A stretch of 63,377 bases of DNA, filler included, from Candidatus Woesearchaeota archaeon (GTDB lineage: Archaea > Nanobdellota > Nanobdellia > Woesearchaeales > WJIZ01): assembly GCA_018221205.1 (NCBI GenBank). It is 4 parts of 4 records of this genome, joined end to end, with 100 filler letters (N's around TTAATTAATTAA, not from the genome) between each part and the next. Parts side by side here need not be neighbours in the genome. Positions count along the whole stretch, not along the records: positions 13,707 to 36,394 come from JAAOYF010000030.1; 3 more parts are not named here. One strand, 5' to 3'. The notes beneath the pieces were generated by a model. The model saw only the letters and a program-made list of their open reading frames with translations, had not been told where the DNA came from and did not search any database. Both the position numbers and the translations under genes were made by a program. This document shows, one piece after another, positions 4,490 through 57,662 of this stretch (its first letter is position 1; each line of letters starts with the position of its first letter).

Positions 4490-5839
4490 ATGCTAAAAAA
4501 AAGGGGAACTTATATTATCTGCTTTTTAGCTTTGATTCTTATTGGCTGCCAACCTGCAGATGACCAAAAGTGTGATCAGGGTTTTATTTGGGATATCGAT
4601 GATTGCTGTCCTGATGGGAATAACGACGGGAGATGTGATGTGATAGAAGAGCCTCGCTTAGAAGATGTAGCTACAAGAGATATCATCGCTGAAGAAGATA
4701 AACCCTTTGAACAAGATTATAAGAAGATGGGATTATTTGGAGGGCAATGTGAAGGCACTGGCTCTTTCAAATTCAAGACATTTCCTTTAGATATTGAGGA
4801 TGTTGAAGCGATCATCCCTATGGGAAGGGTGCAGGATTCACATGTCACGCCGACAGACCATCAGTATATACTTCCTAAAGGCATCACAAGCGGCTCGATG
4901 TTGACAGACAATCCTGAACAGTATGAGATAAAGGCTCCGGCTGATGGATATATCATCAGTGTAGAGATATTCAAAGAGCCCATTGAGGAAGATTATCGGG
5001 ACCAGGAATATGAAGATAATTACTTGGTCATCATGGAACACTCCTGTACATTTTATTCAGAGATGATCCACCTCTCTACTTTAAAGCCTCAAATTTTATC
5101 ACAGATCAACTTTCAGAATCCTGATTCACAGCATCCTTTTGGCAGTGGCAGAGTAGCTGTCAAAGAAGGAGAAGTCATCGGTACGATGGGTGCACGATCA
5201 TTTGACTTCTATATCATTGATACAGACATTAATCTGGATTATATCAATCCAGAACATTTCTCTGGAGATTTTCAGGCATGGAAAACACATGTTGTTGATA
5301 CGTTTGATTATTTAGAAGAACCTTTACGAAGCCAGTTGCTTGCAAAGAATATCAGAAAAGTAGAACCTTATGGTGGAAGGATTGATTATGATGTTGATGG
5401 AACTTTATTGGGTAACTGGTACACTGATTGGGATCCTGAGAAAGTCCAAGAAATAATATGGAATTATTGGACCAGGGAAATCAGCATTGTCTATGATTAT
5501 ATTGATCCAAGTCAAATAAGGATCTCATTGGGAGAATTTGGAGGGTATCCCAGGGCTCATGGTGTTTTGGGTAATACACCCGATCCTGCTGATATTAGTG
5601 TTGAGGATGGCATGGTCAGATATGAACTCGTAAAAGTTGACTATTTTGACGAAGATGGAAATAAGTGGGAAGGTTTCAATTATGCAGATGGTGTCTATGC
5701 GCAAAATTATGATGAAGTCCAAGGTGTTGTTCTATTGCAGATGATTGAAGATAGCAAATTGAAAGTTGAGGTTTTTGCTTATGTTGATCCTTCTACAGTA
5801 ACAGGATTTACTGATAATGCATTGATTTATGAAAGGTAG
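4490..5839 (+). CDS. Acidic lipoprotein with peptidase M23-like fold (degenerate)
   Basis: Lipobox LIGC; CCPDGNNDGRCD motif; HVTPTDH, IKAPADGYI, MEHSC..SEMIHL, VKEGEVIG resemble M23/LytM segments. Confidence 0.6.
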   Translation: MLKKRGTYIICFLALILIGCQPADDQKCDQGFIWDIDDCCPDGNNDGRCDVIEEPRLEDVATRDIIAEEDKPFEQDYKKMGLFGGQCEGTGSFKFKTFPLDIEDVEAIIPMGRVQDSHVTPTDHQYILPKGITSGSMLTDNPEQYEIKAPADGYIISVEIFKEPIEEDYRDQEYEDNYLVIMEHSCTFYSEMIHLSTLKPQILSQINFQNPDSQHPFGSGRVAVKEGEVIGTMGARSFDFYIIDTDINLDYINPEHFSGDFQAWKTHVVDTFDYLEEPLRSQLLAKNIRKVEPYGGRIDYDVDGTLLGNWYTDWDPEKVQEIIWNYWTREISIVYDYIDPSQIRISLGEFGGYPRAHGVLGNTPDPADISVEDGMVRYELVKVDYFDEDGNKWEGFNYADGVYAQNYDEVQGVVLLQMIEDSKLKVEVFAYVDPSTVTGFTDNALIYER

Positions 5840-5885
5840 ACTTGTTACGTTCTTTTCCGGTGTGAAAAATTTTCGTCCGAAAAGT

Positions 5886-6025
5886 CATAGAAATCTGCCG
5901 GAGTGTCCTACCTCGCCTTAAAAGGCGAGGCTTGAACGGACACTTCTTTTGATAGGCAGATTTCTAGGACACAAAAAGCCATTCATCTCCTAGCTAAAGC
6001 AAGGAGCTTTCTGGCTTTTTCGTGT
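5886..6025. repeat. Structured intergenic element, family I, copy 1 (nested stems, IS200/IS605-end-like hairpins)
   Basis: TAGAAATCTGCC/GGCAGATTTCTA, GAGTGTCC/GGACACTT and CCTCGCC/GGCGAGG nested stems, then ACACAAAAAGCC...GGCTTTTTCGTGT. Homologous to 20463-20576. Confidence 0.75.
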
Positions 6026-6317
6026 AAAATTTGAGTTCCCCATAAATTCGCCCGAAGGGAGTCTAATTGTCCGAAAGATTAGGGGTTTCGTTCAAAAGAG
6101 CTTTAACGATACATAAAGAAAAAGTAATTAGGGAAAGTTTTATTATTTTGCATGAAAAGATATTTATATCTTCTAGTTATTATTTTCTTATGCTTAAAAA
6201 GAATGACAAAAATGACCATTACTATTATCATTGCAATAGATTCGGGGATGGGTGGCATTTCATTGTTCAAAAATCGGTAAAGGTACATTTATAAACCACT
6301 TGTTGTACACTGTTTCT

Positions 6318-7043
6318 ATGAGAAAATTATTGTTGCTCTCAATTCTTCTGGTATTGGTTATACCTGCTTTTGCACAAATCTCTGGATTAGTGAATGACCA
6401 AGCTAATGTACTATCAGCCCAGGATAAAGCAAGGATAGAAAGTGTATTAAAAAATATTTACGATAGCAAACAAGCGGAATACGCTGTTGTAATTGTGCAA
6501 AGCCTTGAAGGACAGGATATAGAAGGTTATGCCTTAAATCTTGCCCAGGGAAATCTAGGGGATACAGAAAAGAATAATGGCCTCCTTTTGCTTGTTGCAG
6601 TTGAAGACAGACAGTATAGGTTTGAGGTTGGAAGAGGCATCGAGCCTATTCTCAATGATGCAAAAGTCGGCAGAATCGGGAGGAATTTTCTCGTTGAGAA
6701 TTTTCAAAGTGGAAACTATGGGCAGGGTATTTTAGAAGCAAGTGTAGCTATAGCTGATGAATTAGGTGTTGGGCTCACAGGGGATATTCCGAGAGTCACA
6801 CAAAGAAGATCATCATCGTTGGGCACCTGGATCTCATTTTTTATGTTCTTTATATTTTTCTCATCTTTATTTGCAGGAACGAGTAGAAGATACAATAAAA
6901 GAAACCGATTTTTTAATGCTGCCCTCATGGCTGGACTGATGTTTGGCGGCAGAGGCCGAGGTGGCCTTGGTGGAATGGGCGGCATGGGAGGAGGTTTCGG
7001 CGGTGGTGGATTTGGAGGCGGTGGAGCTTCTGGGGGTTGGTAA
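6318..7043 (+). CDS. TPM-domain protein (YgcG-like) with Gly-rich tail
   Basis: Signal peptide MRKLLLL, VNDQANVLS, NNGLLLLVAVEDR..RFEVGRGIE, C-terminal GGGFGGGGASGGW. ATG at 6318 follows TTTATAAA. Confidence 0.92.
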   Translation: MRKLLLLSILLVLVIPAFAQISGLVNDQANVLSAQDKARIESVLKNIYDSKQAEYAVVIVQSLEGQDIEGYALNLAQGNLGDTEKNNGLLLLVAVEDRQYRFEVGRGIEPILNDAKVGRIGRNFLVENFQSGNYGQGILEASVAIADELGVGLTGDIPRVTQRRSSSLGTWISFFMFFIFFSSLFAGTSRRYNKRNRFFNAALMAGLMFGGRGRGGLGGMGGMGGGFGGGGFGGGGASGGW

Positions 7044-13606: not shown

Positions 13607-13706
13607 NNNNNNNNNNNNNNNNNNNNNNNNNNNNNNNNNNNNNNNNNNNNTTAATTAATTAANNNNNNNNNNNNNNNNNNNNNNNNNNNNNNNNNNNNNN
13701 NNNNNN
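13607..13706. other. Artificial contig spacer
   Basis: 100 nt of N with central TTAATTAATTAA (stops in all frames). Confidence 0.98.
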
Positions 13707-17993: not shown

Positions 17994-20417
17994 TTAAGGC
18001 AAGTTCTCATAACAGTTGATGCTGAACTCTACATCTGCACTGGCGACATCAATCGTCTCAACGATAAAATTCATGCCTGTTATAGTGCCGCCGAACTGGC
18101 ATTCCTGATCGGTCAATAAGAAACTAGATATATAATCAAAGATATGGTGCTCAGGATAGAATTGCTCCAAGTCGACCGTGCACATCGCAATGCCGCCGCT
18201 GGATAAAGATGAGGTGAAGCTGCTGAAAGACACAGGAGCCATCCCTTGAGTCTCGACAAAGATCTGGACATCAGGGCCGAATGCAATAGGACTGGGAAAC
18301 ATGACCTGTCCTTGAACACTTGCACCATTGGTGTTTAAAATAGCAGTATTCTCATCAACCTGTGTGAAGCCGCCTGCAAACGTTAATGTCGGACAGCGAT
18401 TGACTTGTTGAGGACCGCAATTATCATCAGGTATGGTATCACAATTTTGATCAATCCCATCCGAGCAAATTTCCGGTGCACCGGGATAGATCGTTGAATC
18501 AAAAGGATCGCAGTCTAGATCATCAATAACTCCATCTCCATCAGAATCTGGTGCGTCTAGGGCTTTGCAGATACCGCATGGTATTCCTCGTTCATTTGAG
18601 GCAAAATCACAATCGCCAGTCTGTCCAGTGGTATAATCGCACACTGGTGTTTCATCTGGGCAATCTGTATCAGTGCTGCAGCATGAATCTCCAGTAGTGC
18701 TGTCATAAGCATCAAGGCATTCATTTACCGGAGGAGGGAGTTCGCACATACATTCAGCGTTGCAGATATAGTCATCATCACAACCTCCACCATCACATTC
18801 CTCTCCTTCTTCTTTAACATCATTACCGCATTCAGGTGGTGCGATACAAGTACCGCATTGTCTACCGTATTTGCTTTCACATCCACTATTCTCAGTGCTG
18901 CAGATTCTGCCGCTATCACAATCAGTGTCTGTTGTACAACAACCTGTCTCAATAGTTACAGGTTCTGGTTGACCTACATCAACTTCCATCTCAAAGTCTG
19001 GAAGTGCACCGCAAGCTGGCAGTTGATTTGGTGGCTGGCCTCCTCCACCTCCTATTGTTCCTCCTGGCTCTTCTCTGAAATAACAATAACAATCAAAACA
19101 ATTGGAAGGAACACCTAAGAGCAGTGTGCATGCATCACTTAAGCCTTCACCCTCACATTCCTCACCTTCTTCAACAGCTCCATTGCCACAGAATTCTCCA
19201 GGTGTATAAGTATAACAATTCTCATCTATCGTGCCATCACAATTATTATCAATACCGTCGCAGATTTCCGCAGCCTGATCCTGTACTGTGTAGAGATTGC
19301 AGTCAGACCATTGGCCAGTATCTTCACACACCTGCATATAAGTCGTACATTCATCAATTTTATCACATGCCTGCTGAGTTCCTGGTTGACAGCTTTGGCA
19401 CACACTATATTCATCAATAGCAATATCACAATCATTGTCTACAGCATCGCAAACTTCATCTGCAAAAGGATTAATCTGATCATTAGTATCATCGCAATCC
19501 ACACCCTTAGCGCAACCCTCTCCAAATTCATCTCCATCATTATCAACACATGCGCCTTGGCATGCTTCATCGATCTCCCCATCACAATCATCATCTGCAC
19601 CATTACAAATTTCTGCAGCACCAGGATTGACCGTAGGGATAAAATCATTACAATCTGGAAGCCTATATTGACAAGCATCTGAAGGTATTGCCCCGTAGCC
19701 ATCCTGATCCTTATCTTCGCACAGTGCCCCTTCAAAAGTGAATCCGACAACAGGTCCGAACACTCCATGAGTGATCGAAACAACCGTCACTGAAATGCCC
19801 CCCATATAAGTGTGTGTGCCATCAATAAAGATCTCAGCAGTTTCCCCATTTACCTTGAGGATAGCTCTTCCGATCACATCATCCATATCAACGAGCTCAA
19901 ACTCGAATTCAAGGCCTTGATAGACATATATCTTTACCAAACCCAAAATAATGAAACCTGCTTCTTTGAATTCACAGGGTTGTTCATCGACGATAAAGTC
20001 ACAATTGTTATCACGGCCATCAGTACATAATTCATCCATCTGCGGATGCATCATCAGATTTGCATCATCGCAATCACCTTCAATATTGGTGAAGCCATCC
20101 CCATCATCATCAACATCATCTGATCCTGGGTATTCCACAGGATCCGTGTCATCCGGATCCTCTCCTTCTTTATAATTATCAAAATCCCGATCAACAGTTC
20201 CATAATTGGTCGCTACATAGCGTAGATCATCAAAAGTGATCTCCCCATCCTCATTTGTATCGAGATATTCGTTGGTAAATTCTGTCTTTCCGAAATGGAA
20301 TGCTACATTGACAATATCCTTGAACGTCGTCTCACCATCACGATTCACATCAGAAGGAAAAGCATAAGCTACACTGCATAATAGAATAAATAGGATGAAC
20401 ACGCTCTTTTTCTTCAT
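17994..20417 (-). CDS. Large secreted Cys/Asp-rich surface protein with dockerin-like EF-hand pair and MopE-like repeats
   Basis: Signal peptide MKKKSVFILF; DVNRDGETTFKD and DTNEDGEITFDD; repeated DxDxDG..DCxD....PGAxEICDGxDNxCDGxIDE; CGNGxVExGEEC. Confidence 0.85.
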   Translation of the reverse strand: MKKKSVFILFILLCSVAYAFPSDVNRDGETTFKDIVNVAFHFGKTEFTNEYLDTNEDGEITFDDLRYVATNYGTVDRDFDNYKEGEDPDDTDPVEYPGSDDVDDDGDGFTNIEGDCDDANLMMHPQMDELCTDGRDNNCDFIVDEQPCEFKEAGFIILGLVKIYVYQGLEFEFELVDMDDVIGRAILKVNGETAEIFIDGTHTYMGGISVTVVSITHGVFGPVVGFTFEGALCEDKDQDGYGAIPSDACQYRLPDCNDFIPTVNPGAAEICNGADDDCDGEIDEACQGACVDNDGDEFGEGCAKGVDCDDTNDQINPFADEVCDAVDNDCDIAIDEYSVCQSCQPGTQQACDKIDECTTYMQVCEDTGQWSDCNLYTVQDQAAEICDGIDNNCDGTIDENCYTYTPGEFCGNGAVEEGEECEGEGLSDACTLLLGVPSNCFDCYCYFREEPGGTIGGGGGQPPNQLPACGALPDFEMEVDVGQPEPVTIETGCCTTDTDCDSGRICSTENSGCESKYGRQCGTCIAPPECGNDVKEEGEECDGGGCDDDYICNAECMCELPPPVNECLDAYDSTTGDSCCSTDTDCPDETPVCDYTTGQTGDCDFASNERGIPCGICKALDAPDSDGDGVIDDLDCDPFDSTIYPGAPEICSDGIDQNCDTIPDDNCGPQQVNRCPTLTFAGGFTQVDENTAILNTNGASVQGQVMFPSPIAFGPDVQIFVETQGMAPVSFSSFTSSLSSGGIAMCTVDLEQFYPEHHIFDYISSFLLTDQECQFGGTITGMNFIVETIDVASADVEFSINCYENLP

Positions 20418-20462
20418 TAGAGGATTTCTTTGATTTTTCCTTAATAAAGATTTCGATTTCAT

Positions 20463-20576
20463 CATGAAAATCCATCATCGGTGTCCTACCCCTCACTTTA
20501 GTGGGGGGTTTAATCGGACACCTCCATCTATAGGTGGATTTTTAGGACACTTAGAAATCCTTAGGATTTCTAGTGT
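20463..20576. repeat. Structured intergenic element, family I, copy 2
   Basis: AAAATCCATC/GGTGGATTTT, GGTGTCC/GGACACC and ACCCCTCAC/GTGGGGGGT nested stems, then ACACTTAGAAATCC-TTA-GGATTTCTAGTGT. Confidence 0.75.
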
Positions 20577-20674: not shown

Positions 20675-21559
20675 ATGGACGAAGAAATCCTTGAGAAACA
20701 GAAGAAAGCAGGCAGGATAGCGAAAGAATGCCTGCTCTATGGAAAGGATCTTATCAAGAAAGGCGCTTCTATGGAAGCTGTTACGGATAAGATAGAAGAT
20801 AAAATCTTCCAGTTAGGTGCCCGACCAGCCTTTCCTACGCAGTTGAGCGCTGATGAGATCGCAGCCCATTATTGTGCATTCAAAGACGACTCCATAATTT
20901 TCGAAGACCAGCTTGTTTGTTTAGATATCGGTGTGCATGTCGACGGCTATATAGGGGATAATGCGCTGAGTGTCGATCTCTCAGGAAACAATACAGACCT
21001 GCTAAAAGCATCCAAAGAAGCATTGAAAGCAGCAACAGAGATTCTTGCTCTGGGTGTCAAGACAGCAGAGATAGGTAAAGCAATAGAGACAACCATAACC
21101 AATGCAGGATTCCAGCCAATAAGAAATCTTTCAGGACACGGCCTTGCCCAGTATAATGTCCATAATCCGCCTACCATACCCAATTATGATACAAAAGATG
21201 ATATCAAGCTTGAAGAAGGCTTTATCGCGATAGAGCCATTCGCTACAACCGGTGCTGGAATGATCCATGAGCTGGGAGATCCGAATGTCTTTGTCATGAA
21301 AGCCAAGAAATCAGTCCGTACAGGTTTTGTCAGAAACATCCAGAAAGAGATAGAATCGTATGAAGGCCTTCCTTTTACCAAGAGATGGCTCTTGAAGAAG
21401 TTCTCAGATGCCCAGGTGAGCTACGCGTTCAAGCAATTCAAGCAGCTTGGCATTCTCAAAGAATACCCTCCATTGGTGGAAAGAAGCAACGGTTTGGTCA
21501 GCCAGGCAGAAAACTCGTTCTATATTGGTGATGAAGTCATCCAGCTTACTTCTGTTTAA
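20675..21559 (+). CDS. map: Methionine aminopeptidase, type II
   Basis: AFP, AAHY, LDIGVHVDGYIGDNA, NLSGH, AIEPFAT, LKEYPPL, VSQAE. Confidence 0.96.
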   Translation: MDEEILEKQKKAGRIAKECLLYGKDLIKKGASMEAVTDKIEDKIFQLGARPAFPTQLSADEIAAHYCAFKDDSIIFEDQLVCLDIGVHVDGYIGDNALSVDLSGNNTDLLKASKEALKAATEILALGVKTAEIGKAIETTITNAGFQPIRNLSGHGLAQYNVHNPPTIPNYDTKDDIKLEEGFIAIEPFATTGAGMIHELGDPNVFVMKAKKSVRTGFVRNIQKEIESYEGLPFTKRWLLKKFSDAQVSYAFKQFKQLGILKEYPPLVERSNGLVSQAENSFYIGDEVIQLTSV

Positions 21560-24188
21560 GTTTTTTAAGATTCATATCATATCCTATCTGTGCAGTTGAC
21601 TTCCTCAAAGTTGCCTCGACATTAGAAGGGTCAATTTGAAAAGCATTTCCTATCTCCGACGTAGGACGACCTTGCACAAAATACAATATCATGGCTAATC
21701 TCGCTTGATCGGGAAGAGATCGTGATAGTTCCCTAATATGATCAATAGGAAATGTTCTTGAAGATTGAATACCTGATTTGCCTAAAGAACCTAAAGTGGA
21801 TATTTCCTCATCCAGCTGGGTATTGATATAAGCATCTAAAACTCCTAAGAAATCATCGATATGGGCATCTTCAACCATCATGATAGGGTCATCAGGTGTA
21901 TTGATATTTCTCAAGTAGTCCAATGTAAATATTTCATCTTGGAGAAACGTATCAGGTCTCAAGATCCATCGTGATCTAAGAACTGAAGAGATACCTTCTT
22001 TATCCGCAAGATACTCTCTGACAAATTGACCTGCATAAGAAAGTCCTTCAGTTTCAGTTGCCAATTTCTCAAGTGAAGAAGTATGGAAAATACTTTTTTG
22101 AGGATGTCGTCTATCAAGCTTCGCTGGATCAATATAATTGACTGCCATCAAACGCTGGAGAAAATAAGGTACAAGATTATAATGAGCACATGCATCAGGC
22201 ACACTCATCCGTTTAGGTAGGACATCAGTAACCTTAAAATCCTCTTGTCTTTCTTCGGCTTCTTGAGGTGGTGCTTCAGGAAGAGCTACTTCACCTTTGA
22301 ACACTTGTTCCAGCATTTGCAATGGAACTTTTCTCTGGCCTTCAGGAGCAGGATGATCCTTGGTAGATCCTTTTTTCTGCGCCAAATGGGCTGGTATGAT
22401 ATTACCGTATTTTTTTCCGCCTCCAAGCCATTGCTTTTCCACTAACGCTTTAAACGTATTGATATAAGTCTTATCAATAACAAACACATGGCCTCCTTCA
22501 CCGACTTCGCTGACATATTCTAACTGTGGAAGATGGATGGCCAAACGTGCTTCAATATTCAATACAAATTGCCCGGCAATTGTCCGTTGGTTCCTTTTTC
22601 CTGCATGGCGTTCATTGGCTAATTCCCTAAGAACGTCATACGCAAACACTGTGCCTTTGAAATTCGAAACCATCTCCTTAAGATCTTGACCAAGATAAAG
22701 TCCGCTTTCAGCATCGGGATTAAGAAGACCTGCTCGTTGCATCCTATTAGTGAGGGCACTAGACCATCCCCCTATTTCTCTGATTTGTGGTTCACCATAA
22801 AGCCTGCCTTTGGAGAACGTAGATGGATGTCCATTACCATCGTAGCCGAGTAATTTGGTAAGTGTCTCTGTTCCCCGGAAAGTCGATCTTGTCTGCTCAC
22901 CCATCCTAAGGACATATTCATCAAGTCCATCTGCATGACCATCTAGCAGCTGTCTGGTCATTTCAATTGCTGTCGCATCCATTGCCCCCATTCTCATAGA
23001 GTGTAGTAAAGGCGAGGTCTGTCCTTTAGGGAGACGATAAAAAGGATTATCTACAGGAAAGTCAAAGCCTTGAGGAGTAAGTGCAGCCAATGCCCCGTTA
23101 TCTACAGCCTCGACAAGCCTGATTGATTCCTTTCCTTGGATCACTACCCTTTCAGTATCAGGAAGTGTCGCTCTGATATCATCGAGTTCATCAAAAGTTT
23201 TATCCAACTCCTCCTGTGCTTGCGCAACAATTTTTGGTATTCTATAACGTGACTCCTTTCTTCGGCTATGCCGGAACGATTGTTGAATGTCGCTCCTCAT
23301 GCTATTGACATTTGCAGTGAGAACTGCCTTCACTCCATGTACAACACTATTCGATTTGACATCAGACCAATCATAACCAATATGGCTATGGAGACCTGGA
23401 GCCTCAACAATTCCCAAAGTCTTGTCGGTAACAATACGTTGCATATCAGGAGTCATAAAAGTAGTATGATCTCCAACTTTTCTCCCCCGTACATAAACGA
23501 GAATCCCGGAAAGAGGTGGCCTGCCCTTAAAGACATGGTACTTTTGTGTCACTGTTCCCGCACTCGTCTCATCCTTGAATTGATATACTGTTTCTGAATT
23601 AATATCCCCTGGAGTGATCCTTACATTGTTCACTATTAACTCTACACTGTCAAGTAAAGGAAGAAATTCCCAGAGGTAATAATTAGCAAGTTGTTCCGCT
23701 AAGGTACTAAAGTCACCCCCAAAATTCTTGAGCTTTCTCAATACGAGTGTGGTGCCGTGGTCTTCAGGGTCTGCTTCGAGCACTTGATAATCAAAACCCC
23801 TAAAATCCTCTCCATCTATGAATGGTATGGCGGGGGCAAAAATCGTTTCTCCTTTTTGAGTAGTAGTAAATCCGATCTCCCCACAAATCTCTTCTAGTAT
23901 AGATGTTTCAATTCCGAACTGGCCGATGGTTTCCTCGTCATCAGGTGCAAGATGTTCATGATCTCCTCTCCTCCAGAATGCATGGATTCCCCTCTCCTCG
24001 TCCATGCCTATACCATTATCTTTAACAGTCAGACTATCATTGAGTGCTAAAACCTCTATACGTGTTGAACGCGCATCAAGAGCATTGGTCACTAATCCTC
24101 CGGTTCCCTGTTCAAAACTAGAAGGCAATGAAGAAGAGAACCCTTTCATATAACCAGGGAATACTTTGCTCTTGATTTCGTTGGCCAT
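21546..24188 (-). CDS. GHKL/MORC-like ATPase-domain protein with two MerR-like HTH modules and a C-terminal sigma70 region-4-like HTH
   Basis: GLVTNALDA, VKDNGIGMD, IGQFGIE, HGTTLVL; C-terminal LPDQARLAMILYFVQGRPTSEIGNAFQIDPSNVEATL. Confidence 0.7.
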   Translation of the reverse strand: MANEIKSKVFPGYMKGFSSSLPSSFEQGTGGLVTNALDARSTRIEVLALNDSLTVKDNGIGMDEERGIHAFWRRGDHEHLAPDDEETIGQFGIETSILEEICGEIGFTTTQKGETIFAPAIPFIDGEDFRGFDYQVLEADPEDHGTTLVLRKLKNFGGDFSTLAEQLANYYLWEFLPLLDSVELIVNNVRITPGDINSETVYQFKDETSAGTVTQKYHVFKGRPPLSGILVYVRGRKVGDHTTFMTPDMQRIVTDKTLGIVEAPGLHSHIGYDWSDVKSNSVVHGVKAVLTANVNSMRSDIQQSFRHSRRKESRYRIPKIVAQAQEELDKTFDELDDIRATLPDTERVVIQGKESIRLVEAVDNGALAALTPQGFDFPVDNPFYRLPKGQTSPLLHSMRMGAMDATAIEMTRQLLDGHADGLDEYVLRMGEQTRSTFRGTETLTKLLGYDGNGHPSTFSKGRLYGEPQIREIGGWSSALTNRMQRAGLLNPDAESGLYLGQDLKEMVSNFKGTVFAYDVLRELANERHAGKRNQRTIAGQFVLNIEARLAIHLPQLEYVSEVGEGGHVFVIDKTYINTFKALVEKQWLGGGKKYGNIIPAHLAQKKGSTKDHPAPEGQRKVPLQMLEQVFKGEVALPEAPPQEAEERQEDFKVTDVLPKRMSVPDACAHYNLVPYFLQRLMAVNYIDPAKLDRRHPQKSIFHTSSLEKLATETEGLSYAGQFVREYLADKEGISSVLRSRWILRPDTFLQDEIFTLDYLRNINTPDDPIMMVEDAHIDDFLGVLDAYINTQLDEEISTLGSLGKSGIQSSRTFPIDHIRELSRSLPDQARLAMILYFVQGRPTSEIGNAFQIDPSNVEATLRKSTAQIGYDMNLKKLKQK

Positions 24189-25960
24189 TATTTCACTACT
24201 AGTCTTCGATAATGTCTTCTCGCTTTATCTTCATGCCCTCTTTTAATCCATTGGAATGGTTGTGAAACTCCCATTTCCTTTGCCCAAGAAGGACATTTCA
24301 TTTTAGCTATGCGCGCTTCATAGGGATGAAGTCCTGCACCTGTTCCTTCAGTAGTACGACTTCGCATATTATAGCCGTCAGGGTCAAGATGCATCATTAA
24401 TGGAGTGTATCCTTCAACCTTCTTTAGGGCGGCTAAAATATCATTGCGAAGAAATTTGACAATCACTGCGTCAGGACGTTTCACTCCCTTGAGTATGCCA
24501 CTAGCATACATTCCCCGAACAGTTGGTACATTCAGACCGCTGTGATAAGCAACTTCCTCCTGAGAATATGCTCGATGCTTATCAAATCTCACTTCGGAGA
24601 CAGGCACAGCGACATTTTGGCGAGGGCTAAGCATCAACCGCACAGCGGTATCTATGCCTTCAGTGTCAGAAAAGAAATGCTGAGCAGCCCTCCATCGCGC
24701 ATTATCAAGCTCATCGAGATATTCTAGGGACCCGTCCATTTCAGATCGGACATAAGCATCATTAGCAGCATAGAGTATCCCTGTTATGAGTCGATCGACA
24801 AAACCGCCTTTCCCTCCCCTAGTTAAAAAAGGGGCTGCGGCATTGATATAGATTGTTTTTCCATCCATTCGGGCCATTTGCTTCGAATCATCATCTACTT
24901 CCCATTCAAAGGAAAAACTCGCGGGACTGCGTTGCGTGCCTACTCCTGTGTTAAAGGCCTGTTGCGCCCTCTTCAATGAGCTTTTGAGTGTCGGGAAAAT
25001 TCGATCCTGATCTGAAAAATACCTTCTCGACCCCACAAGATTATCGATACTATAAGAGATTTCGCCAAGAAATCTTCTGAATACATCCTGAAAACTTTGG
25101 TATGCTTCGCTGTCTTGCTTAAAGCGAAGTCCGCCTAACCCCAAGCTATCTTTCATTTTACTGACATCAATCATGCCCAGTATTCTGTTTTGGGCTCGAA
25201 AGGGAAGTGCACTCATAAACTCAGATGGATTTCCTACTGTTCTTCCATCCATATAGAGATAGAGGCCTGATGCCTGAATATCTAATCTGGCATTGTAATA
25301 TACTGATCCTTGTACTCTGCCTACTCCGGGTACTATTTCATCAAAAACAAACTCTGTGCAGTACTGTATGATTCCGCGTTTCGAAACAGGTTTATCTCCG
25401 ACATAAAGGTCAAACCCTGGTTGACCTGGAAATCCCCATTGCAATGTTGAGAAGAGCTGATCAAACTCAAAATCATGCTTCAGCCCTGATAGAGTAATCC
25501 TTGTTCCCACTAATCCTTCAGTATTCTTTTTTGTCCGATACTTAAAAGTATGGGAACGTGCAGGATCAGCAAAAGATCCTCGAGCAATGTGGACTGTTGT
25601 ATCACCATAAGATTCAATGAGGAATTCAGTAGCAAGTGCCTCAAGGGCGACACGTGGTGCGATCCCTGTATCGATCCTCACTCTTCTTCCAGGAGTACGA
25701 ATCGGAAAACCAGGGTCTCCGCCTCGTCTAAGAAATACCTCTAACTCCTTTTTATCAAGTACTGCTCCATCATCATCAAGAACAAGGGTATCATCAACAC
25801 ATTCTGCACTGAATCCTGAAGAATCCCTATTCCAAGACTCTGATCCGAGATCGATAATAGGGCGGTATCCATCAGGATAGACAGAACGGGCCATGCTGCT
25901 TTCTAGAGAATCCCCTATAGTTGGAGTTAACGATCCTGTTCTCAGTACTTTTTCGCTCAA
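24188..25960 (-). CDS. Degenerate GHKL/MORC-like paralog with MerR-like HTH module
   Basis: DLGSESWNRD, LDDDGAVLD, DTGIA, VGTRITLSGL, GLYLYMDGRTVG align with the downstream paralog. TTG start; stop overlaps the next ATG. Confidence 0.65.
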   Translation of the reverse strand: MSEKVLRTGSLTPTIGDSLESSMARSVYPDGYRPIIDLGSESWNRDSSGFSAECVDDTLVLDDDGAVLDKKELEVFLRRGGDPGFPIRTPGRRVRIDTGIAPRVALEALATEFLIESYGDTTVHIARGSFADPARSHTFKYRTKKNTEGLVGTRITLSGLKHDFEFDQLFSTLQWGFPGQPGFDLYVGDKPVSKRGIIQYCTEFVFDEIVPGVGRVQGSVYYNARLDIQASGLYLYMDGRTVGNPSEFMSALPFRAQNRILGMIDVSKMKDSLGLGGLRFKQDSEAYQSFQDVFRRFLGEISYSIDNLVGSRRYFSDQDRIFPTLKSSLKRAQQAFNTGVGTQRSPASFSFEWEVDDDSKQMARMDGKTIYINAAAPFLTRGGKGGFVDRLITGILYAANDAYVRSEMDGSLEYLDELDNARWRAAQHFFSDTEGIDTAVRLMLSPRQNVAVPVSEVRFDKHRAYSQEEVAYHSGLNVPTVRGMYASGILKGVKRPDAVIVKFLRNDILAALKKVEGYTPLMMHLDPDGYNMRSRTTEGTGAGLHPYEARIAKMKCPSWAKEMGVSQPFQWIKRGHEDKARRHYRRLVVK

Positions 25961-26083
25961 TTTACCACTTATTAAGAGAGATTACCATACATAAAGCTTA
26001 AGATTTATAAAAATTATTAATATCTAATATAGAGGTTCTACCGAAGCGCAATTTATTTAAACCTCATTCTTCAAAAAACCACC

Positions 26084-27325
26084 ATGGATTATCGAAAGTA
26101 TAAGGCAGAGCAGGAAAAGAAGAAGAAAGTCCATGAAAAACACCATAAAGTGGCATTGGTGGCAGTTACCATAGCCGCTATCCTGGTTGTTTCAGTCATC
26201 TCCAATTTCTTCGGCTCTGAGACAACAGGGTATGTCAGCCTCACAAGAGATAAAGTCGAACTGAATGAGCTTGCCTATACAGATTCTGAATTCCTTCTGA
26301 GTGCTGATGCACCATTGACCATGTCTTCAGCAAGGATTTCCGGCAAGATCCTTGGCAGCGGCTCTGTCAAGGTCTATCTAGTCAATGACGAAGAGAAAAA
26401 ACTGGTCTATACCAATGAGATAAGGCCAAAACACATTCCATTGATAACTGGTTTTGCAGTGAAGAGTGAATATCTGGATTATGTGCCTGAATCAAGGCTC
26501 CGGGTCAACCTGGATAATCTTCAGATCATAGGAAAGGGCAACACCCTGACAGGCATCCTTCTGCAATCTGAAGGAAATCCGCAGGGCATGTATGTAGAAG
26601 ATGCCAGACTGTCTTGGACTCCTGATAATGGTGAGCATATTGAAGGGATAACCATAAACGATGTTGAGTTCTGGGGATATGGAAAAGCAGGTTTTCCAGT
26701 GGAAAAACAGCCTTCTGGCTCAGCGCTGAACGGCTGGGGCCAGAAGCTGCCTGAAAACACGCCGAGAAGGATAAGCAGCATTGATTTTGATGCTCCTATC
26801 CAGGACAAAGAGATCACCATAGAGATCATGTTCCATGATTATCTGCCTGGTTTCAGATTAGCAGATGAACGGAGTGTTAAGATATACATCGACCTCTCAG
26901 GGAGCAAAGAATCTTATGTCGAAGAGGATGGCCAGAGAATCCAGACATTTGATTTAGTGAAGATTGAGCTGCCCGAAGTGAATTTCACCACTCCTGATCC
27001 AATAGATGAGACTGAATGGACAGTCAATCCATTATACCCTGGCTTTGAGGCAACTGATGATGTTGACGGCCGCATCAGGAAAAGAAAGGTATTGGGTACA
27101 ATCGCATTTGCATCTACTCCAGACGCGATTATAAGCTTCCAGGTCATAGAGAATCCCCTAGCAAGAGATATTTTTGAGCAGACTCCTATTGATACTATAA
27201 CAGAGATTCTGAGCGAGTGTGAAGAGACCTGCGTCTTAGACCCTCTGCTCTTAGACGAATATGAATTCGAATTTGAGATCGAAGAAGGCACCGCAATTAA
27301 TGTGTCGACTATAGAGTTTTCCTGA
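26084..27325 (+). CDS. Hypothetical membrane-anchored extracellular protein
   Basis: Basic N-terminus, single TM, TTGYVS motif, C-terminal CEETC. Confidence 0.75.
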   Translation: MDYRKYKAEQEKKKKVHEKHHKVALVAVTIAAILVVSVISNFFGSETTGYVSLTRDKVELNELAYTDSEFLLSADAPLTMSSARISGKILGSGSVKVYLVNDEEKKLVYTNEIRPKHIPLITGFAVKSEYLDYVPESRLRVNLDNLQIIGKGNTLTGILLQSEGNPQGMYVEDARLSWTPDNGEHIEGITINDVEFWGYGKAGFPVEKQPSGSALNGWGQKLPENTPRRISSIDFDAPIQDKEITIEIMFHDYLPGFRLADERSVKIYIDLSGSKESYVEEDGQRIQTFDLVKIELPEVNFTTPDPIDETEWTVNPLYPGFEATDDVDGRIRKRKVLGTIAFASTPDAIISFQVIENPLARDIFEQTPIDTITEILSECEETCVLDPLLLDEYEFEFEIEEGTAINVSTIEFS

Positions 27326-36394: not shown

Positions 36395-36494
36395 NNNNNN
36401 NNNNNNNNNNNNNNNNNNNNNNNNNNNNNNNNNNNNNNTTAATTAATTAANNNNNNNNNNNNNNNNNNNNNNNNNNNNNNNNNNNNNNNNNNNN
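36395..36494. other. Artificial contig spacer
   Basis: N run with TTAATTAATTAA. Confidence 0.98.
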
Positions 36495-57562: not shown

Positions 57563-57662
57563 NNNNNNNNNNNNNNNNNNNNNNNNNNNNNNNNNNNNNN
57601 NNNNNNTTAATTAATTAANNNNNNNNNNNNNNNNNNNNNNNNNNNNNNNNNNNNNNNNNNNN
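57563..57662. other. Artificial contig spacer
   Basis: N run with TTAATTAATTAA. Confidence 0.98.

Follow-up and report, generated by a model that had tools for sequence, protein, structure and literature searches.

A degenerate pair of MORC-like proteins in a woesearchaeal genome and the sigma-70/CarD-linked family to which it belongs

What role could two ATPase-like proteins play when both have lost residues of the ATPase site? The question is raised by a pair of genes, here designated A and B, in the genome of a Candidatus Woesearchaeota archaeon (assembly GCA_018221205.1). The window (the whole stretch of DNA analysed, 63,377 nucleotides) consists of four contigs joined by N spacers at 13607-13706, 36395-36494 and 57563-57662, and the order across the spacers is not genomic; both GHKL genes are contained in one contig. 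Our tentative answer is that A and B are a pair that has been retained and is likely catalytically dead, from an archaeal GHKL+S5+helix-turn-helix (HTH) family tied to bacterial sigma-70 and CarD, possibly acting as an ATP-independent DNA-binding heterodimer on promoters of a bacterial-type RNA polymerase, most plausibly that of a host or prey.

Domain structure and lost catalytic residues

The first-pass annotation of this locus described two co-oriented open reading frames (ORFs) of 590 and 880 amino acids (aa), coupled by TAATG and lying tail-to-tail with map, and quoted motifs from both products. All of these are present: the two genes have the stop/start base at 24188 in common, and gene B overlaps the 3′ end of map by 14 bases. 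The proposed GHKL motif order followed by an S5-like region is borne out by the AlphaFold2 models, in which both proteins match GHKL+S5 proteins and show a Bergerat fold followed by an S5 domain, the arrangement that defines this superfamily. The model of protein A (predicted local distance difference test score, pLDDT, 89.9) matches TRAP1, MORC3/4 and MutL; no Pfam family matched this protein, but an alignment with intact GHKL relatives spans its residues 2-585 (E 2e-60). Residues ~3-308 of protein B are most similar to MORC3 (Z 23.2, root-mean-square deviation [rmsd] 3.3, 287 residues aligned) and MORC2 (Z 22.6), and also match GRP94, SMCHD1 and MutL. The mean pLDDT of model B is 67, with values under 50 at residues 590-813.

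Of the MerR-like HTH modules proposed earlier, one stands in each protein, while the second copy in protein B is weakly matched and falls where the pLDDT is under 50. The first half of the first module of protein B (residues 461-513) resembles the GIsul2 excisionase (8c3t; Z 7.2, rmsd 2.0, 53/57 aligned). Three features are additional to that annotation: a sigma-70 region-4-like HTH in protein B (residues 818-863), and the loss of the S5 arginine and of the lid S-x-K in both proteins.

Neither protein has the residue set of an active GHKL ATPase (motif-I Glu and Asn, DxGxG, lid glycines and an S5 basic residue). In protein B the motif-I Glu is replaced by Gly31, the lid S/K by His77/His79 and the S5 Arg by Trp274, and the nucleotide-contacting Asn35, Asp57, Gly59, Gly61 and G-x-F-G are kept. 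Protein A has Asp37 at the motif-I Glu position, Glu41 for Asn, Val67 for the second Gly of DxGxG, Ile96 for a lid Gly and Gly277 for the S5 Arg. From established GHKL chemistry, protein B is predicted to be unable to hydrolyse ATP, and protein A to be unable to bind nucleotide. A role for the S5 Arg is suggested by its conservation in relatives (R/K in 98/102) and by analogy with MORC and MutL.

Most relatives do not share these losses. Among 102 relatives with an HTH module and motif I, the motif-I position is occupied by Glu in 94 (Gln in 6, Gly in 1, Asp in 1), the Asn and the Asp are invariant (102 each), the lid Lys is found in 98 and the F-D-R position is Arg or Lys in 98; all seven tested catalytic residues are kept in 87. 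Degeneration as a family trait was therefore rejected, and the pseudo-ATPase status proposed earlier for the pair is not supported as a property of the family, five other A+B pairs being intact as well. Two relatives, P0035 and P0108, each lack both the Glu and the Arg; P0035 branches elsewhere in the tree, which indicates that catalytic loss happened more than once. No other row keeps so few of the conserved GHKL columns as this pair, with 0.50 in each protein against a mean of 0.84 and a minimum of 0.54 in the others (n=98). In protein A the nucleotide site is lost and the HTH module is of average conservation (0.67 vs a family mean of 0.70).

The GHKL-HTH family and its links to sigma-70 and CarD

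Both genes encode the four parts by which we define the GHKL-HTH family, namely a GHKL domain, an S5 domain, a middle domain and an HTH module. By sequence, this is an uncatalogued family of Nanoarchaeia (Woesearchaeota-type) with ~106 sequence clusters, whose named relatives come from Candidatus Woesearchaeota and Nanoarchaeia, which suggests Woesearchaeales as the order of the host genome. A HMMER search of 1.84 billion representatives returned 124 matches, and 106 of the 125 proteins (the matches plus protein A) carry the HTH module. Full-length members occur in 16/401 genomes of the order, these 16 also being rows of the search alignment, and in 13/331 genomes of a phylum sample (7 new, 3 from other orders of the class); two further phylum-sample matches, in G472 and G257, have no HTH module and are neighbours of cytosine methylases. 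Among 42 loci from a first viral scan, which have generic GHKLs, and 78 other genome loci from a pattern scan, no GHKL bears the HTH module. In the ESM Atlas the whole protein B matched generic HATPase_c_3 clusters under 0.9 only, and residues 330-590 of protein A had no match. In ~20 members (e.g. P0038, P0052, P0059 and P0109) the place of the third HTH is taken by an uncharacterised alpha/beta C-terminal domain of ~150 aa, duplicated in P0109.

A quick tree search (74 rows, first 420 residues, Shimodaira-Hasegawa-like approximate likelihood ratio test [SH-aLRT] only, no bootstrap) separates the family from GHKLs linked to restriction-modification (R-M) with an SH-aLRT of 98. Gene A groups with the first genes of other pairs in a clade of 16 rows (SH-aLRT 98); the tree gives gene B, on a long branch, no firm position, its nearest rows being second genes of pairs. 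Pairing is not confined to this genome: A+B arrangements recur in five other lineages (G245, G369, L190/L191, L195 and L196/L200), all of which keep the motif-I Glu, the Asn and DxGxG.

The branches of A and B are the longest in the family, and this, with the lowest GHKL-column retention, is what would be expected of a relic that evolves under relaxed selection since the loss of its sigma partner and no longer serves a function. The genome has no sigma core, and a word-index search of 5.8 billion proteins with protein B returned only itself among the 8000 candidates scored, no close relative being found. Against such decay, the two full ORFs (no stops in 4.4 kb, on branches as long as 1.5 and 1.9 substitutions per site), their TAATG coupling and the putative promoter have remained intact over a very long divergence, codon use is ordinary, the model of protein A is of high confidence (pLDDT 89.9), its losses are concentrated in the nucleotide site, gene B has gained domains, and parallel losses are seen in P0035 and P0108. 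We consider a relic improbable.

Links to transcription genes were surveyed in 22 other GTDB genomes with family members. A sigma-70 gene adjoins the family gene in six (G062, G245, G347, G461, G499 and G529) and lies one gene away in G465. In G339 (cut by a contig end) and G313 (no sigma core) the coupled gene starts with the N-terminal HTH appendage found on the operon sigmas. A 1027-aa family protein of G445 (L208:2743-5826) is fused to a full CarD (CarD_C E 1e-24, RID E 2e-11), and in G369 a gene-B-type protein ends in a Tudor-like tail; the G076 locus is cut. With 237 Sigma70_r2 matches in the 401 order genomes, the chance of such a match among two neighbours is ~8e-4 per locus, and the six adjacencies have a nominal P of 3e-14, a value that is overstated because kin are not independent. 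L110 (GHKL-sigma) was added by pattern scans, which are biased to the seed clade. Among 13 metagenome loci, an A-B-sigma arrangement is present in L190, L191, L195, L196 and L200 and an appendage-bearing gene in L192; L193 and L194 have no link, three are cut and two are duplicates. G245 also carries an A-B-sigma operon, and these operons end after the sigma gene. The partner sigmas are of several classes (FliA/WhiG-like, RpoD-like and ECF-like), which suggests repeated recruitment.

Fusions point in the same direction. P0101 is fused to an ECF sigma (r2+r4, E 7e-11), and Tudor/RID-like tails were recognised with weak Pfam scores in P0027 (PF21196, E 1e-3) and P0083/G347 (PF02559, E 0.012), and by alignment only in P0006/G369 and P0113. 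CarD RID matches were otherwise found in 2/201 order genomes, within long Mfd-like ORFs whose contigs seem, by eye, to be bacterial, and the G445 fusion is thus not background. The CarD/TRCF RID matches L213-L215 (G079, G049) resemble bacterial Mfd genes and possibly reflect bin contamination. No bacterial rpoB over the cut-off was detected in any of the 23 family genomes, and a hidden bacterial polymerase was rejected on this ground.

Sigma factors in DPANN archaea were reportedly first described by Rinke in 2013. The passage of Castelle et al. 2021 (PMC8204110) on this subject gives sigma-70 (fam00359) as prevalent in Woesearchaeota, with no anti-sigma found and its control unclear, and names no partner; here, Sigma70_r2 matches were present in 146/401 order genomes, and a subset of such orphan sigmas stands in operons with, or is fused to, a GHKL-HTH ATPase. 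A MORC-like ATPase equipped to bind DNA thereby becomes the first partner seen repeatedly with the sigma-70 genes of Woesearchaeota, and the CarD and Tudor/RID-like fusions point at bacterial RNA polymerase, which the family genomes lack. This link to orphan sigma-70/CarD in DPANN archaea is the main value of the finding, and the presence of bacterial sigma factors in such archaea is likely to be illuminated by the family.

Several minor observations concern the sigma operons. The two-HTH appendage (~135 aa; L110:9940-10350, L025, L028, L190, L196, L203 and L202) is joined to sigma cores of both the FliA-like and the RpoD-like kind, and an 892-aa protein that lacks a sigma core bears it as well; it has no Pfam match and is weakly similar to the GHKL HTH (E 6e-4). 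In G529 (L109/L205) the assembly has a frameshift that divides an RpoD-like sigma. The A-B-sigma operon of G245 (L025) is followed by a gene whose 635-aa product contains several Fis-like HTHs, and an ArdC-like anti-restriction N-terminal domain is encoded nearby (5122-7029 and 1892-2509). A full bacterial-type RelA/SpoT gene (L194:8090-9979) directly follows a family GHKL gene. In the genome studied here, a Sigma70_r4 match just over the cut-off lies in a 318-aa frame (G000:C55:871-975).

Candidate targets and alternative explanations

Sigma region 2, the CarD RID and PcrA-type Tudor domains are contacts of bacterial polymerase. Archaeal initiation uses TBP, TFB and TFE, as stated in a passage of PMC7289017, and these two points together make a bacterial host or prey the likeliest target. 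PMC12352652 and PMC9723730 report peptidoglycan hydrolases and predatory traits in these archaea. Intact members would be ATP-gated GHKL dimers (homodimers or A/B heterodimers) that close on DNA, grip it by their excisionase/MerR-like HTH modules, and at promoters recruit or remodel bacterial polymerase bound to sigma or CarD. A and B of this locus may pair with each other. The sigma core would have been lost from this genome, the ATPase gate would have decayed and gene B would have gained DNA readers (the second HTH module and the region-4-like HTH), the end state being a static, promoter-occupying clamp. If the heterodimer reading is true, the pair supplies a natural MORC-type pseudo-ATPase heterodimer.

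Several findings weigh against this account. The region-4-like HTH of protein B scores E 9e-5 with PF08281 in the whole protein, which is below the Pfam cut-off (the isolated tail reaches 26.6 bits, over the cut-off, and TIGR02937 gives E 2.5e-7), and region-4-type HTHs also match in archaeal controls, i.e. the type is generic. Protein B is eroded throughout, not just at the active site (S5 0.53 and HTH 0.53 of conserved columns). Ten of the 22 genomes have no sigma gene, appendage or fusion at the locus (G006, G088, G098, G124, G145, G204, G281, G336, G478 and G522), and the A+B pair of G369 also lacks a sigma gene. There is no genome-level enrichment in the order sample (Sigma70_r2 in 6/16 family genomes vs a background of 146/401), and genome-level co-occurrence was rejected. 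The present genome, which is 94.8% complete, contains no Sigma70_r2 match and no operon-type sigma. Finally, the coupled partner in G088 and in a viral record described below is a different protein, of ~1050 aa.

The tail of protein B was also considered as a fused remnant of an operon sigma and rejected: it gave only 7.9 bits with the operon-sigma r4 profile, and the sigma N-module and core had no match. Region 2 and region 4 of sigma were not found together in protein B, which carries the region-4-like HTH only.

A bolder extension of the preferred account is that Woesearchaeota-type archaea deliver a MORC-like ATPase and a sigma-70/CarD toolkit into bacterial hosts to seize or shut down transcription, as large phages do, this pair being an ATP-independent, sigma-4-tipped repressor version. 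We regard it as doubtful, the one ground for delivery to another cell being that the family genomes have no matching polymerase. The family bears on whether such archaea parasitise bacteria.

In an IMG/VR record of 331 kb, the size of a jumbo phage, a family member is found among phage-like genes, coupled to a 1042-aa protein, with a FliA-like sigma 30 kb away that is followed by a MerR-like HTH gene. One query for Terminase_6N found none in this record, whose viral nature therefore rests on its IMG/VR class and phage-like neighbours. The 1042-aa partner is 34% identical to the coupled partner in the Woesearchaeales genome G088. The two loci (L221:4794-9855 in the record and L031:5691-10837 in G088) represent a second operon type, a GHKL gene with a gene for a ~1050-aa protein that has no Pfam match and a weak C-terminal exonuclease/phosphoesterase-like match.

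The family could instead regulate or organise the chromosome of the archaeon itself, with sigma/CarD parts co-opted for the archaeal RNA polymerase, to bind DNA or the clamp, and A+B serving as an ATP-independent repressor or chromatin protein. Eukaryotic MORCs compact DNA, and several HTH modules are present here. A putative archaeal TATA-like promoter precedes gene A, codon use is native (52nd and 23rd percentile for the two genes, with third-position GC content at the 8th-9th percentile), the genes lie between housekeeping genes rather than in islands, and no secretion signal was noticed. This explanation is nevertheless unlikely in view of the polymerase contacts and archaeal initiation factors named above, a distribution (16/401) too patchy for a core chromatin protein, and the presence of the family in the sigma-encoding 331-kb viral record.

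The pair had been described as inserted next to map, and synteny in relatives bears this out. In G006 a homolog of the 413-aa gene begins 43 bases after map, and in G004, G001 and G003 map is followed by hisS; these flanks identify A+B as a clean two-gene insertion. Between map and the 413-aa gene there is no integrase, methylase or nuclease, only genes A and B, in keeping with the earlier statement that no nuclease or methylase is nearby. The same holds for the family loci read, where a SNF2 helicase in G281, at a distance of three genes, was the one exception to the lack of a nuclease, methylase or helicase partner.

This gene content bears on a nuclease-free anti-virus module, e.g. one sensing or blocking viral transcription, that would resemble MZA. 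In MZA (mzaABCDE) a sigma-70-family MzaA stands beside the GHKL protein MzaB (NCBIfam names), the same coupling as in the family, and the distribution of the family is patchy. MZA has five genes including the MzaD nuclease, through which it acts according to bioRxiv 2022.06.16.496414. No MzaA or MzaB ortholog over the cut-off was found, family proteins scoring ~25 bits vs the 850-bit MzaB cut-off and relatives matching just the first 100-200 residues of MzaB/REase models, far under NCBIfam cut-offs; MzaC, MzaD and MzaE were found neither in the insertion nor in the operons. The partner sigmas of the family differ in that they are FliA-, RpoD- or ECF-like and bear an N-terminal HTH appendage of their own, and the family belongs to archaea without bacterial polymerase. 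PADLOC gave 0 matches for both proteins, and those GHKLs of the same genomes that are linked to methylases have no HTH module and occupy separate branches. We rate such a defence function as the least probable of the explanations. Of the functions listed in the first-pass annotation (chromatin, transcription, defence), transcription gains from the sigma-70/CarD neighbours and fusions, whereas defence is least supported, the pair lying in no defence island.

Comparison with MORC and paraMORC1-5 leads to a similar picture. In the relevant passages of Iyer, Abhiman and Aravind 2008 (PMC2292703), these proteins share with the family an N-terminal GHKL+S5 and a sporadic distribution, and the prokaryotic ones are mostly R-M linked, which would favour defence. 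The MORC S5 motif given there, GhXhhpXXRhl, occurs in 0/102 relatives and in neither A nor B. In contrast to MORC/paraMORC, the family has no fused or adjacent nuclease, methylase or superfamily II (SFII) helicase, and it has C-terminal excisionase/MerR-like HTH modules, A+B paralog pairs and sigma/CarD links; the pair itself also lacks the catalytic residues. R-M operon partners (SFII helicase, methylase, endonuclease) are absent from the insertion, and the neighbours at family loci were scanned too. paraMORC2-5 are characterised by ExxxH in S5 and a RecB-type nuclease, TIR or HxH C-terminal domain; no nuclease or TIR match was obtained in the 72 of 123 relatives scanned with general Pfam (not paraMORC) profiles. 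By analogy, the family may work like a MORC/paraMORC DNA clamp in spite of lacking the MORC motif and R-M context.

The closest NCBIfam match of the ATPase part is the BbrUII/HgiDII-type GHKL restriction enzymes (NF050001; E 1e-15 to 7e-28 in relatives), covering the first ~200 of 659 positions only at under a fifth of the cut-off. HTH modules replace the nuclease and there is no methylase; enzymes of this type are the likely origin of the ATPase module. The original proposal of an undescribed system holds for the catalogued systems compared (PADLOC, the MORC motif and the MZA models), and no description of the family or its sigma link was found in the literature searched, whose coverage mostly excludes subscription journals.

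Feature map and surrounding genes

Features of the locus are summarized in Table 1.

Table 1. Positions of genes, domains and a putative promoter element in the window
Feature	Coordinates	Strand	Remarks
map, type II methionine aminopeptidase	20675..21559	+	TIGR00501 over cut-off; left flank of insertion
Gene B	21546..24188	-	880 aa; B-type position, nearest tree rows B-type
Gene B, sigma-70 region-4-like HTH (ECF-like)	21600..21737	-	residues 818-863
Gene B, second, diverged HTH-module copy	21834..22205	-	residues ~662-785; 112 columns, prob 66%, E 6e-5; 5.4 bits
Gene B, first HTH module	22425..22835	-	residues 452-588
Gene B, middle domain	22875..23243	-	residues 316-438; model resembles TTHA0227 (2ejq), Z 7.1, rmsd 3.1, 103 aligned (middling score)
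Gene B, S5-like domain	23265..23729	-	residues 154-308; from model
Gene B, GHKL domain	23730..24188	-	residues 1-153; PF13589 (HATPase_c_3) E 2e-8
Gene A	24188..25960	-	590 aa, TTG start; A-clade member of GHKL-HTH family; model pLDDT 89.9
Gene A, two-part HTH module	24197..24589	-	residues 458-588; conservation family-average (0.67 vs mean 0.70)
Gene A, middle helical/beta domain	24617..25027	-	residues 312-448; I-N-x-x-x-P motif
Gene A, S5-like domain	25043..25480	-	residues 161-306; conserved F-D-R arginine is Gly277
Gene A, degenerate GHKL (Bergerat) domain	25481..25960	-	residues 1-160; from model and conserved columns
TATA-like box TTTATAAA, putative archaeal promoter	26004..26011	-	43 bases upstream of gene A TTG start; read by eye, chance level not computed
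413-aa gene	26084..27325	+	right flank; homolog directly after map in relative G006 (45% identical)

The flanking genes are archaeal (aCPSF1, type II MetAP and hisS). Between aCPSF1 and map lies a gene (17994-20465, minus strand) for an 823-aa cysteine- and acid-rich, repeat-containing surface-type protein, in the place of which relatives have a different gene.

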